Below, one piece after another: positions 6,962-10,275 of a stretch of 64,000 bases of DNA. Made by a program: the position numbers and the translations under genes. Each line of letters starts with the position of its first letter. Position 1 is the first letter of the stretch. Below the pieces are notes generated by a model, which ran no database searches, was not told where the DNA came from, and saw only the letters and a list, made by a program, of their open reading frames with translations. Origin of the DNA: a virus; the IMG/VR virus record IMGVR_UViG_3300028800_002449. The stretch is one strand, 5' to 3'.

Positions 6962-7515
6962 TCAAGTTCTTGAATGCTCGCGTCCTCGACAAGAAGACGT
7001 TCACTCGATCTGAGCTGTTCGGGCCCGAGTCCGTCGGGAAGGGAGCGCTAGTCGAATGGAGTCGCGACATCACGAATCGACTCAGGATCCAGAGAAAGAT
7101 CGTAGCGCTCGGCCCGAATGCCACGAGACCCACCTACAGAGCGATCGAGGTCGTCAAGATGACCGATGATGATGTTGCCAAGTACCTTGGCTATCTTCCC
7201 GACGACGAAGATCTTCCCGCCCCACCCGCGTCGCTTGCCGCCGAAATCAAAAACGTGGAGCCCCTCGACGACGACATCGTCGAGGCAAACACCGCCGCGC
7301 CTGTGGGCAGCGACGATGCTCAACCCGAGGACGCCTCGCTCCATCAGATGCTGGCTTCGCTCGTCTCGATACTCCCCGACCTCGTCAGGGCCGTCCACCG
7401 CATCGAGAAGAAGGCGGTCGCCATCGAGTCTCGCCTCACGGCGCTCGAAGCCACACAGAAGAAGATCGACGAGAACATGGCCTACCTGCTCGAACTCATC
7501 CCGGAGAAGAAGTGA
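6907..7515 (+). CDS. hypothetical protein (202 aa)
   Basis: ATG at 6907 within track ORF 6859..7515; first gene of a plus-strand run. Confidence 0.5.
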   Translation: MPLTENEARRRRLLTKEAFKFLNARVLDKKTFTRSELFGPESVGKGALVEWSRDITNRLRIQRKIVALGPNATRPTYRAIEVVKMTDDDVAKYLGYLPDDEDLPAPPASLAAEIKNVEPLDDDIVEANTAAPVGSDDAQPEDASLHQMLASLVSILPDLVRAVHRIEKKAVAIESRLTALEATQKKIDENMAYLLELIPEKK

Positions 7516-8417
7516 TGGACGCCTCCAACGGCTCCCCCTACGCCGATCAAATCCAACGCTACAAGCTCGCCAAGCACTTCGAGAAGCTCAAGATCTCCGA
7601 CGAGCTTTGGCAGCGCGCCAACCAGGACGACCCGGGGCTCAAGAGCAACGTCAAGAAGAAGGAATGGATCTCAAAAACGCTCGGCCTGTCTCCCTATGAG
7701 ATCGAGATGCGCGAGGCCCTTCGGTTCGCCCCCGAGATCCTCATCGCGCTCGTCGAGGAAGGCATGGTCATGCGATCTGCCGTCCTCATGCTCAGGGAGG
7801 CGAGAGACTTGAGCACTCAGAAAGGTCAGCCCCTTCAAAGCGCGATGGAAAGCGTCATCACCATCTACAAAGCTGGCACTCGACGCTACACGGCCGACAA
7901 CGAATGGACCATGATCAAGCCCTCCCTTTCAAGGGCAGCGGCGGGCACGACGGTCGAAGACGTCGAAGAGTCCGACACGGTCAAGTCCATGTGGTCGACC
8001 ATCAGGAACGCCGTGGTTCAGATCTCACTCAAGAAGGCCGGCAACGAGATCGACCCTCTCGCGCTCGAAGAGGCCAACGGGTGGTTCGAGAAGGAGATCC
8101 ATCGGGTCATCGACGGCTTCACGACGCGCATCCGCAAGAACAGGAAGAAAGAGATCGTCGAGATCAACCGGATGCAGTACGCGAACGCGTGCAAGGTCCT
8201 CGGCATCGTGCCGACCGAAGTGGGCGAGGAGATCGACGTCGAAGTCGCCAAGGCCGCCAAGAAGTCGCTCGCCCGTCGGTACCATCCTGACGCCGGTGGA
8301 GAGTCCACGGAAAAGTACCAGCAGGTCATCGAGGCGTACGAAACGGTAGATCTCTACGCCGAGCAGATGCGCCGCATCGCCAAGAATCAAAACAAGGCCC
8401 CCAAAAGGAGAGACTGA
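7512..8417 (+). CDS. J-domain (DnaJ-like) protein, paralog 1
   Basis: C-terminal AKKSLARRYHPDAGGESTEKYQQVIEAYETV carries an HPD J-domain motif; shares the EINRMQYANACKVLGI block with the other paralogs. Confidence 0.6.
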   Translation: MMDASNGSPYADQIQRYKLAKHFEKLKISDELWQRANQDDPGLKSNVKKKEWISKTLGLSPYEIEMREALRFAPEILIALVEEGMVMRSAVLMLREARDLSTQKGQPLQSAMESVITIYKAGTRRYTADNEWTMIKPSLSRAAAGTTVEDVEESDTVKSMWSTIRNAVVQISLKKAGNEIDPLALEEANGWFEKEIHRVIDGFTTRIRKNRKKEIVEINRMQYANACKVLGIVPTEVGEEIDVEVAKAAKKSLARRYHPDAGGESTEKYQQVIEAYETVDLYAEQMRRIAKNQNKAPKRRD

Positions 8418-8420
8418 CAG

Positions 8421-8957
8421 ATGGCTAGGAAGAGCAACGGAATCCTCAGCTTCGACACCTACAAGCTCGACGAGAAGGCCTCCACGGTCGAGCGCACGGC
8501 CAACGCGCTCGACTGGGCGGCCAACCACTACCCCAAGCAGCTCGTGCCCTACAACATCCTGTTGAAGGCGATCATGGGGTACGGGTTCCTGCCTCGGCTC
8601 AACTCCAGCGCCGTCGTGGACCTCCGTTCCACGATGAGCAGGGTCAAGAAGACGCTTCGGATCAAGTACGGCAAGGGCCTCGTCTCGGAGCCCGGGGCCG
8701 GCGTCCGTGCCACCGTCGACTCTGCGGACCAGCTGCGCACGGACGTCAGGCGAGCAGCCTCAAGGCACCATTCGAGCGGCAAGGCCCTCGCGGCAGCTGC
8801 CAGCCTCGTCGACATGTCGCAGGTCCCGAACACGCCCGAGAACAAGAAGCTCATCCAGTGGGCCAAGACCGGCCTCAAGGAACAGCTCGCTCAGATCGAC
8901 TCGCCCGAGTTCAAGAAGCTCCTCGAACCCGTCACCGAGGTCGACGACAAGGCCTGA
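8421..8957 (+). CDS. hypothetical protein (178 aa)
   Basis: ORF track. Confidence 0.5.
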   Translation: MARKSNGILSFDTYKLDEKASTVERTANALDWAANHYPKQLVPYNILLKAIMGYGFLPRLNSSAVVDLRSTMSRVKKTLRIKYGKGLVSEPGAGVRATVDSADQLRTDVRRAASRHHSSGKALAAAASLVDMSQVPNTPENKKLIQWAKTGLKEQLAQIDSPEFKKLLEPVTEVDDKA

Positions 8958-9086
8958 AAATTATTAACGCTCTGGTTCCGCCAGGTTCGAAGAAAGTTTC
9001 GACCAGCTAGGGGGGGATCTCCCTAATCAGTAGGGAAGGTCGAAGAAAACCTGTAACGAAACCCTCGCTGGAGCGAATCAATCATC

Positions 9087-9572
9087 ATGCCGAAAAGGAA
9101 AGTACAGCCAGGAGTCATCAACGCGACGCCGGCCCTCGCCGCCGTCCTTGAGCAGGTCGTCGTCCAGAGGTGTGAGGGCATCGACTCACTCGACGTCGAA
9201 GAGGTGAGGACGTGGATGTCCAAGGAGATCGAGCGTCTCCTCGCGCGTCTCAGCTCGAAGATCTGGTACAAGCGCCAGAAGGGAAGCCCCGTCGAGATCA
9301 ACCGGTTGCAGTACGTGAAGGCCTGCAAGGTCCTCGGCATCGCCGAGAGCCTCGTCGGCCAGCCCGTAGACGTAGAGGGCGCGAAGATCGCCAAGAGGGC
9401 GCTCGTGAAGTTCTTGCACCCCGACACCATCGGCGGGGACAGCAGCAAGACCGACAGGTACCAGCAAGTCATCGATGCCTTCGACACGATCGAGGACTAC
9501 TCGAAGCTCCTCGCGCAGAAGCCGCCGCGCAGGCCTTACAAGAAGAGAGCTTCTCGTGAAGCTACGGGATGA
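9087..9572 (+). CDS. J-domain-like protein, paralog 2
   Basis: EINRLQYVKACKVLGI ... AKRALVKFLHPD ... YQQVIDAFDTIEDY. Confidence 0.55.
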   Translation: MPKRKVQPGVINATPALAAVLEQVVVQRCEGIDSLDVEEVRTWMSKEIERLLARLSSKIWYKRQKGSPVEINRLQYVKACKVLGIAESLVGQPVDVEGAKIAKRALVKFLHPDTIGGDSSKTDRYQQVIDAFDTIEDYSKLLAQKPPRRPYKKRASREATG

Positions 9573-10275
9573 CGGGTTCTTCCTCGTCGACCGCGACAAA
9601 AGGATTCGAGTCGAGATCGGACGCCCCGTCAAAGCCCTCGTCGGGCAACACATGCTTGCAGAGCTTACCGACAAGGCGCGTCTCGAAGATGAGATCTGGA
9701 CCGCCAGCCTCAAGCAAGACCCCATCATCAGGCTCATGTGGACCCGTAAGGAATGGCTCTCCGGGCTCGGCATCAGCGAAGCGCCTCCTCTGCAACAAAC
9801 AGTCGCTCCACCCTCTCCTCAGCTCAGGAACACCAAGGACTCCGTCCTCTGGGGCAAGATCTCCGCGGACGTCGATGCGATCGTCGCCGAGAAGGTTGGC
9901 GACCCGCTCCTCCTCGAAGAGATCTCGACATGGTTCAGGATCGAATTCGACGGGCTCGTCAGATCTCTTTCTCACAGGCTCGGTCGGATCTCGCAGGAGA
10001 AGGCCCACGCCGAGGTCAACAGGATCCAATACGTCGCAGCCTGCCGGATCCTCCACGTCGATCCTGTCGGCGTGGGAAAGCCCATCGACATCGCCATTGC
10101 AAAGGCCGCCAAGAAGAAGCTAATGCGCGCCTACCACCCTGACCTCAACGACGGCGACGTCACGATGCAGAGCCTCTGCGACTCGATCATGGATGCCTTC
10201 GACACCATCGAGTCCTACGCAGATCAGATGAAGAAGCTCGGGAAGAACGACAAAAACAACGTGGAGGTCACATGA
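9554..10275 (+). CDS. J-domain-like protein, paralog 3 (probable GTG start)
   Basis: EVNRIQYVAACRILHV ... AKKKLMRAYHPD ... IMDAFDTIESY; GTG start after an AAGAGAG Shine-Dalgarno-like sequence, overlapping the end of paralog 2. Confidence 0.5.

Follow-up and report, generated by a model that had tools for sequence, protein, structure and literature searches.

Why would a virus encode three related co-chaperone-like proteins within one short run of genes, and which partners would these proteins serve? The question is raised by a 64,000-nucleotide (nt) stretch of viral DNA (IMG/VR record IMGVR_UViG_3300028800_002449; the entire analyzed stretch is referred to below as the window), in which an earlier inspection of the letters and translations (hereinafter, the sequence-only reading) had noticed three paralogous open reading frames (ORFs) ending in a DnaJ-type J-domain and proposed that their products recruit the host DnaK to distinct clients. 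All three ORFs are present on the plus strand in the ORF listing, within a run of plus-strand genes that we denote X, A, Y, B and C, followed by an ORF of 116 amino acids (aa). Gene A (7515..8417, 300 aa) encodes a long J-domain protein, gene B (9087..9572, 161 aa, isoelectric point (pI) 9.6) is the minimal paralog, and gene C spans positions 9556..10275 (239 aa). That the three are related is borne out by pairwise BLASTP comparison, with 47% identity over 111 aa between A and B (E = 1e-30), 36% over 160 aa between A and C (E = 4e-25, accompanied by a second, N-terminal match with E = 2e-6) and 39% over 107 aa between B and C (E = 1e-22). The similarity is far beyond chance, and A, B and C are paralogous.

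The J-domain is genuine in all three proteins, a call that is based on the comparison of family profiles with J-domains in the PDB, the hhalign comparison with DnaJ and the conservation of the HPD tripeptide among distant homologs. DnaJ (PF00226) is the top Pfam family for A, B and C as well as for nine of the nine close relatives, and it is matched by 94 of 116 distant homologs (best E = 2.5e-9). Two profiles were employed, one built from nine close family members and a deep one from 116 divergent homologs that share 20-35% identity with A. When the close-family profile was compared to the PDB, the first 32 matches were all J-domains (best E = 9.5e-5), aligned in register across helix II, the HPD tripeptide and helix III; with the deep profile, J-domain proteins account for 56 of the 57 listed matches, including the J-domains of CbpA (E = 3.8e-10) and DnaJ (E = 6.3e-10). 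Direct hhalign comparison of the close-family profile with the J-domain of Escherichia coli DnaJ yielded a probability of 92.4% (E = 5e-7, 37% identity over 51 columns). Structure prediction concurs: two AF2 models (predicted local distance difference test (pLDDT) of 79 and 90.5, respectively) display the antiparallel helix II/helix III hairpin characteristic of J-domains, the first 9 Foldseek matches in the PDB are J-domains (probability 0.82-1.0), among them the DnaK-bound 5nro_B, and structure search of BFVD retrieved phage J-proteins at a probability of about 1.0.

The HPD tripeptide (8283-8291 in A, 9417-9425 in B and 10135-10143 in C) is present without exception in 16 close relatives, and in the 116 homologs the histidine, proline and aspartate are retained in 100, 98 and 100% of the sequences, respectively. 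Across the same set, helix II is basic, with lysine or arginine at the equivalents of DnaJ R22 (70%), K23 (67%) and K26 (75%), and the core positions are likewise maintained (equivalent of L10, 97%; alanine at A53, 95%; tyrosine or phenylalanine at F47, 91%; an aromatic residue at Y54, 93%). An 'AC' pair that ends helix I is nearly invariant in the family, and the loop that connects helices I and II is, throughout the family, 5 residues longer than in E. coli DnaJ owing to an insertion. The sequence-only reading had staked its case on a PF00226 match and on the persistence of HPD in homologs, and both are found. Because the J-domain is C-terminal and the only Pfam and NCBIfam matches in A, B and C are to the J-domain, with whole-protein scores far below the equivalog cut-offs and no class A or class B features recovered in these searches, these proteins belong to class C (type III) J-proteins.

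The J-domain is part of a larger common C-terminal module of ~135 aa that consists of a two-helix hairpin followed by the J-domain. The conserved block described in the sequence-only reading is shared by A, B and C but reaches ~55 residues farther toward the N-terminus (IDPLxLEE..W..KE...), which adds the helical hairpin, and C deviates from the proposed consensus at two sites, with ILHV in place of LGI and SLCDSIM in place of YQQVI; C is the most divergent copy. In protein A, the order is an N-terminal helical domain (7539..7916, plus strand, residues 10-135) with 8 helices and a beta-hairpin and a predicted ParB/Spo0J/KorB helix-turn-helix (HTH)-like fold, a linker, the helical hairpin (7968..8144, plus strand, residues 153-211), which constitutes the first half of the common module and is modeled as two long helices (153-176 and 182-211), and the C-terminal J-domain (8163..8396, plus strand, residues 218-295), which includes helix I (220-230), helix II (243-257), HPD (258-260) and helix III (266-295). 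The AF2 model of A has a mean pLDDT of 90.5, with values of ~97 for N-domain residues 10-135. The same reading assigned the three proteins different N-terminal regions, which is accurate to the extent that the full N-domain is found in A, whereas B is nearly the module alone, that is, the hairpin and the J-domain preceded by ~20 residues, and C shares the first ~50 residues of the N-domain of A. The homology of the N-terminus of C spans residues 10-60 of A (hhalign probability 87%, E = 4e-6); the remainder of the domain, including the HTH core, is missing, and the hairpin and J-domain are retained, so that C can be viewed as an A-like protein in which the part of the N-domain starting with the recognition helix has been lost.

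In the predicted structure, the N-domain of A has an HTH-containing helical fold that resembles the DNA-binding domain of ParB, Spo0J and KorB; this assignment is based solely on the fold, and a DNA-binding function is putative. Family-wide, this domain is moderately basic (median pI 9.4), and R67, which is located within the putative recognition helix, is conserved in 95% of the sequences. The HTH-like domain begins at about residue 10 of A, where no match to ParBc, the N-terminal CTPase domain of ParB, was detected, and the neighboring proteins X and Y contain no ATPase signature, that is, there is no adjacent ParA-type partner. Given the lack of both ParBc and a ParA-type neighbor, we do not class A as a ParB protein.

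Exhaustive HMMER search with an A-type profile retrieved 485 representative clusters (50% identity) with E <= 1e-3, of which 195 reach E <= 1e-10, and the family is at least that large; the tiny family of 5-14 clusters obtained with a word-indexed search is a sensitivity artifact, as the exhaustive search makes clear. Most of the A-type proteins are 290-320 aa long and align over nearly their full length, and all family members that were looked up are either annotated as 'hypothetical protein' or nameless. In nine of nine independent loci (the window and L006 taken as one locus, L001, L003, L004, L010, L007, L011, L012 and L013), in which the identity of the A proteins drops to 24%, A is preceded by X and followed by Y, usually with overlapping stop and start codons. 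Hidden Markov models (HMMs) of the two neighbors recognized their counterparts in held-out loci, directly 3' of A in the case of Y (L012, E = 4e-72; L013, E = 1e-37; L011, E = 3e-26) and directly 5' of A in the case of X (L012, E = 2e-17; L013, E = 9e-5).

In the window, gene X (6907..7515, plus strand) encodes 202 aa from ATG 6907, within an ORF that is open from TTG 6859; the starting residues MPLTE are conserved, and the gene call in L006 also gives 202 aa. The middle part of the protein is acidic, its C-terminal region looks like a coiled coil, and no match was obtained in Pfam, PHROG or the PDB. Y (8421..8957, plus strand), the third gene of the cassette, encodes a basic protein of 178 aa (pI 9.8) that is 70-77% identical among the close loci and 28% identical to its counterpart in L007, with common motifs such as PGAG.RAT. 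Y is conserved better than the accompanying J-protein and is the best-conserved member of the cassette; searches of Pfam, PHROG, NCBIfam, PADLOC and the PDB returned no match for it.

The number of J-modules per locus is nested: the distant relatives carry A only, L001, L003, L004 and L010 carry A and B, and the window and L006 carry A, B and C. Orthologs of B were identified in L001, L004, L006 and L010, and the only ortholog of C found is P0013 in L006. A is the ancestral form, with B added in a sub-lineage and C confined to the phage of the window and one relative. The modules of A, B and C fall in separate clades that are 35-43% identical, which implies that the duplications are old. In L003, a P0009-like protein of 237 aa (11721-12434) has a J-module that is basal in the B clade and an N-terminal motif of the A/C type (ISD.IW...DP...WL). 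The combination of a B-clade J-module with an A/C-type N-terminus in this intermediate paralog suggests that the B-type proteins may have derived from a C-like, HTH-deleted ancestor.

Comparison of the window (6907-10622) with L006 (1780-5495) gives nucleotide identities of ~100% for X and A and 96% for Y, compared to 79% for B and C (75% at the protein level) and 86% for the 116-aa ORF. The ratio of nonsynonymous to synonymous substitutions (dN/dS) between the two phages is 0.21 for B and 0.27 for C, so both are real genes under purifying selection; the ortholog of the 116-aa ORF, at the equivalent position in L006, shows 80% aa identity and a dN/dS of 0.42. The sharp boundary of divergence suggests recombinational mosaicism, in which the B-C segment has been exchanged or evolves apart from the cassette.

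Canonically, the HPD tripeptide and the basic helix II of a J-domain dock on DnaK and trigger ATP hydrolysis, upon which DnaK locks onto a nearby substrate. Recruitment of the host DnaK to distinct clients, as originally proposed for these proteins, is a reasonable inference from J-domain function. We consider it probable that A, B and C are class-C co-chaperones of an uncultivated jumbo phage, of which A directs DnaK to a complex containing X and Y, and B and C are untethered or alternative adaptors or modulators. Under this scheme, A, B or C would dock on the host DnaK (Hsp70) via the invariant HPD loop and the basic helix II and stimulate its ATPase activity, and DnaK would then clamp whatever the rest of the J-protein holds close. 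Protein A, produced together with X and Y from the translationally coupled cassette, would bring DnaK to an X/Y-containing complex for assembly or remodeling, and its ParB-like domain might place this complex on DNA. In B and C, the hairpin and the DnaK-activating end are retained but the putative DNA-binding part has been lost, and these two proteins probably serve as adaptors, untethered or alternative, or modulate the same pathway. Binding of DnaK, binding of DNA by A and interactions with X or Y are our inferences.

A more elaborate form of this proposal, which we put forward tentatively and regard as rather unlikely, is that X-A-Y is a widespread phage module, not recognized before, in which the J-protein A, via its ParB-like HTH domain, tethers the host DnaK to a DNA-bound X/Y complex and remodels it. 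Such tethering could occur, for example, at an origin of replication, at a partition site or within a complex engaged in transcription, and the HTH-less proteins B and C, which have the same hairpin, could tune the process or compete for the identical partners.

Several observations weigh against the co-chaperone interpretation or against its DNA-bound form. The Pfam DnaJ scores of the three window proteins (20.9, 15.8 and 13.0 bits) are each below the gathering cut-off of 27.8; in 70% of the family, lysine occupies the position of DnaJ Tyr25, a functionally important residue; C carries a cysteine at the equivalent of Phe47; and, in the model, helix III is a single long helix, with no separate helix IV. 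The N-domain of A has no sequence match in Pfam or the PDB even at E <= 10, and hhalign comparison of the deep profile with a Bacillus subtilis Spo0J segment gave no significant match (8% probability, E = 0.004), albeit in the expected HTH register. In this phage, the net charge of the HTH-like segment is 0, and the search for palindromic, parS-like sites around the cassette yielded short, weak palindromes only. Searches of Pfam, PHROGs, NCBIfam, PADLOC and the PDB with the N-domain of A, X and Y gave no meaningful match, and X and Y have no recognizable function. Finally, the window covers 64 kb of a genome of ~260 kb, which leaves room for a different partner, namely an Hsp70 encoded elsewhere in the phage genome, with which A, B and C would form a self-contained chaperone system as reported for some 'moraphage' jumbo phages. 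Some jumbo phages indeed carry both DnaK and DnaJ (PMC12619734), but no Hsp70 is found among the large ORFs scanned in the window, nor is there an HSP70 Pfam match in any of the related loci (up to 21 kb each), so we deem a phage-encoded partner very unlikely. Still less probable, to the point of being barely credible, is that the C-terminal module, like Tim16/Pam16, has only the structure of a J-domain and mediates protein-protein interaction or dimerization, having lost the ability to activate Hsp70: the near-complete retention of HPD and the basic character of helix II in the 116 homologs, at 20-35% identity, point to selection for Hsp70 activation.

A more substantial competitor is the possibility that A, B and C mainly hijack or inhibit chaperones by competing with host DnaJ, CbpA or DjlA for DnaK, with B acting as a decoy that would drive futile DnaK cycles. 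The outcome could be an altered heat-shock response, as with the phage protein Rki, which stabilizes sigma-32, or the disabling of a DnaJ-dependent anti-phage sensor. Rki acts in this manner, and its toxicity is DnaK-dependent (PMC3486835), and DnaJ is required by the defense protein bNACHT25 according to work cited in PMC12619734. B has no obvious client-binding domain, and the divergence of B and C (79% nucleotide identity, against 100% for A) between otherwise near-identical phages is a pattern frequent in host-conflict genes. However, the dN/dS values of 0.21-0.27 reflect purifying rather than diversifying selection, PADLOC produced no matches, and the deep conservation of A in a coupled X-A-Y cassette favors a dedicated assembly or remodeling task over titration. 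All told, we regard hijacking as the main role of these proteins as doubtful and prefer the reading of A, B and C as class-C co-chaperones that are centered on the X/Y complex.

The gene boundaries and the layout of the locus require some comment. A is most likely translated from ATG 7515, located within a TGATG stop/start overlap with X, rather than from GTG 7512, which would give 301 aa; read from ATG 7515, A has 300 aa, the same as the database protein P0001. The sequence-only reading thus identified a real ORF at 7512..8417, with a start that is probably one codon too early, and placed the third ORF at 9554..10275, which is 2 nt out of frame and of a length that is not divisible by 3. For C, the in-frame starts are ATG 9475 (266 aa), from which the ORF is open, and GTG 9556 (239 aa). 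GTG 9556 is preceded by AAGAGAG, the database protein P0011 is an exact match to C read from this codon, and the C gene of L006 likewise overlaps its B by 17 nt; GTG 9556 is the likely start. The 27 additional residues that ATG 9475 would contribute are an Arg/Ser-rich product of the overlap with B, and the database gene calls use GTG, so we rejected this alternative. An antisense ORF at 9023-9487 was dismissed as well because the plus-strand frame is conserved, with a dN/dS of 0.21. P0011 is encoded on a 260-kb contig, which implies a genome of jumbo-phage size; the window itself is a phage-like sequence of ~60% GC.

The description of the three J-protein genes as tandem holds for B and C, which overlap, but A and B are separated by the unrelated, conserved 178-aa gene Y. 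X, A and Y are tightly coupled and are followed by a 130-nt gap and then by B, C and the 116-aa ORF, which overlap one another. The last of these (10272..10622, plus strand), which shares its first 4 nt with the end of C, closes the plus-strand gene run ahead of a tRNA bank; Pfam and PHROG searches with its product gave no match. Neither a sigma-70-type promoter nor a plus-strand terminator was detected inside the run. The gap between Y and B contains an intergenic element (8990..9030, plus strand) that is conserved in six loci. It consists of AAAGTTTCGACCAG, a 17-nt spacer and CCTAAT, and the spacer is a G-rich near-palindrome, TAGGGGGGGATCTCCCTA; in all six loci, the boxes TTTCGRCCAG and, 17 nt on, C(C/G)CTAAT are retained despite diverged flanks. 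This element might function as the promoter or operator of the B-C unit. It occurs once within the window, and we accordingly discarded the idea of a recurrent promoter consensus.

Directly 3' of the J-protein run, on the minus strand, lies a bank of 35 tRNA genes (10627-21714) that covers all 20 amino acids and includes an Ile-tRNA(TAT), with small ORFs scattered among the tRNA genes. A long ORF of this region (11038-11856, minus strand) runs across predicted genes for two Val-tRNAs and one Pro-tRNA; probably, the 3' portion alone is a true gene, which matches a gene of ~182 aa with a weak match to IGPS (PF00218) that recurs 3' of the cassette in L001, L003, L006 and L010. On the other side, a few genes 5' of the cassette and in divergent orientation, a protein of ~625 aa with a C-terminal VWA domain is conserved in several relatives (3405-5300, minus strand, in the window; 6037-7911 in L001; 6740-8602 in L003; 149-2026 in L004). 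Farther 5' of the VWA gene, L001 contains a gene for a ThiF (E1-like) protein and L003 shows a faint Prok-JAB match, which hints at a ubiquitin-like module. The window further encodes SNF2 and RecD2-type helicases and, at 22658-23386 (plus strand), an NrtR-type protein that combines a NUDIX domain with a winged-helix regulator, the counterpart of which in L012 (8484-9224) adjoins X-A-Y. A 573-aa protein (57927-59648, plus strand) matches the nuclease half of the phage terminase large subunit (phrog_2666, E = 4e-13), which supports the phage origin of the window.

Phage J-proteins as such are not new, and annotated examples are widespread in viral databases. What is new here is a large, nameless family that combines a C-terminal J-domain, a conserved hairpin and an N-domain with a predicted ParB-like fold, an X-A-Y cassette that is invariant in the loci examined, and the expansion to three paralogs in this lineage; a literature search found no match for such a J-domain architecture. 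GenBank phages were searched at the nucleotide and protein levels, the queries being the locus, A, Y and a distant A-type member, and no match emerged, including in tblastn of the three proteins (A at E <= 0.01) against 50,697 GenBank phage records, among which we take RB43 to be included, and neither IMG/VR pattern scans nor a scan of the GTDB representative genomes revealed relatives. Neither a cultured relative nor a host was found. X and Y are the obvious candidate clients or partners of the A-type J-proteins, and the series from A to A+B to A+B+C is a natural experiment in the viral diversification of Hsp70 adaptors. If the N-domain of A binds DNA, the family would represent a route for delivery of the host chaperone to a defined DNA site. 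The importance of the host chaperones for phage biology is well established, given that replication of phage lambda requires DnaK and DnaJ.

To our knowledge, Rki is the only phage-encoded J-protein that has been studied functionally. Rki (gp057w) of the T4-like phage RB43 and its relatives is a class-C J-protein that binds DnaK, requires HPD for stimulation of the DnaK ATPase and stabilizes sigma-32, and joint action of several DnaJ-like phage proteins has been proposed (PMC3486835); DnaJ together with DnaK has been reported in some jumbo phages (PMC12619734). The proteins described here resemble Rki in being phage class-C J-domain proteins with an otherwise orphan partner domain, but differ from it in that the J-domain of Rki is N-terminal (residues 2-70) and encoded by a single gene, whereas here it is C-terminal, following the hairpin, and present in three paralogs, one of which is part of the X-A-Y cassette. 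Among cellular proteins, the best J-domain sequence matches of the phage family are E. coli CbpA and DnaJ, and CbpA is a J-protein that also binds DNA. Unlike CbpA and DnaJ, the phage proteins lack the G/F region, the zinc finger and the DnaJ C-terminal domain, the domain order is reversed, and the family has the 5-residue insertion in the helix I-II loop and lysine in place of Tyr25. Tim14/Pam18 and Tim16/Pam16, the J and J-like proteins of the mitochondrial import motor, are only ~20% identical to the phage proteins, which have no membrane anchor or mitochondrial context, and J-like proteins such as Tim16 are devoid of HPD, whereas the tripeptide is kept in all three phage paralogs. From ParB, Spo0J, KorB and Noc, protein A differs in the lack of significant sequence similarity, of a ParBc/CTPase domain and of a nearby ParA. 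The large T antigen of polyomaviruses, which belongs to a eukaryotic virus and combines an N-terminal J-domain with a helicase domain, is unrelated to the phage family beyond the J-domain; if the DNA-tethering version of the proposed mechanism were true, X-A-Y would be a bacterial-virus counterpart of the T antigen logic that couples a J-domain to origin binding.

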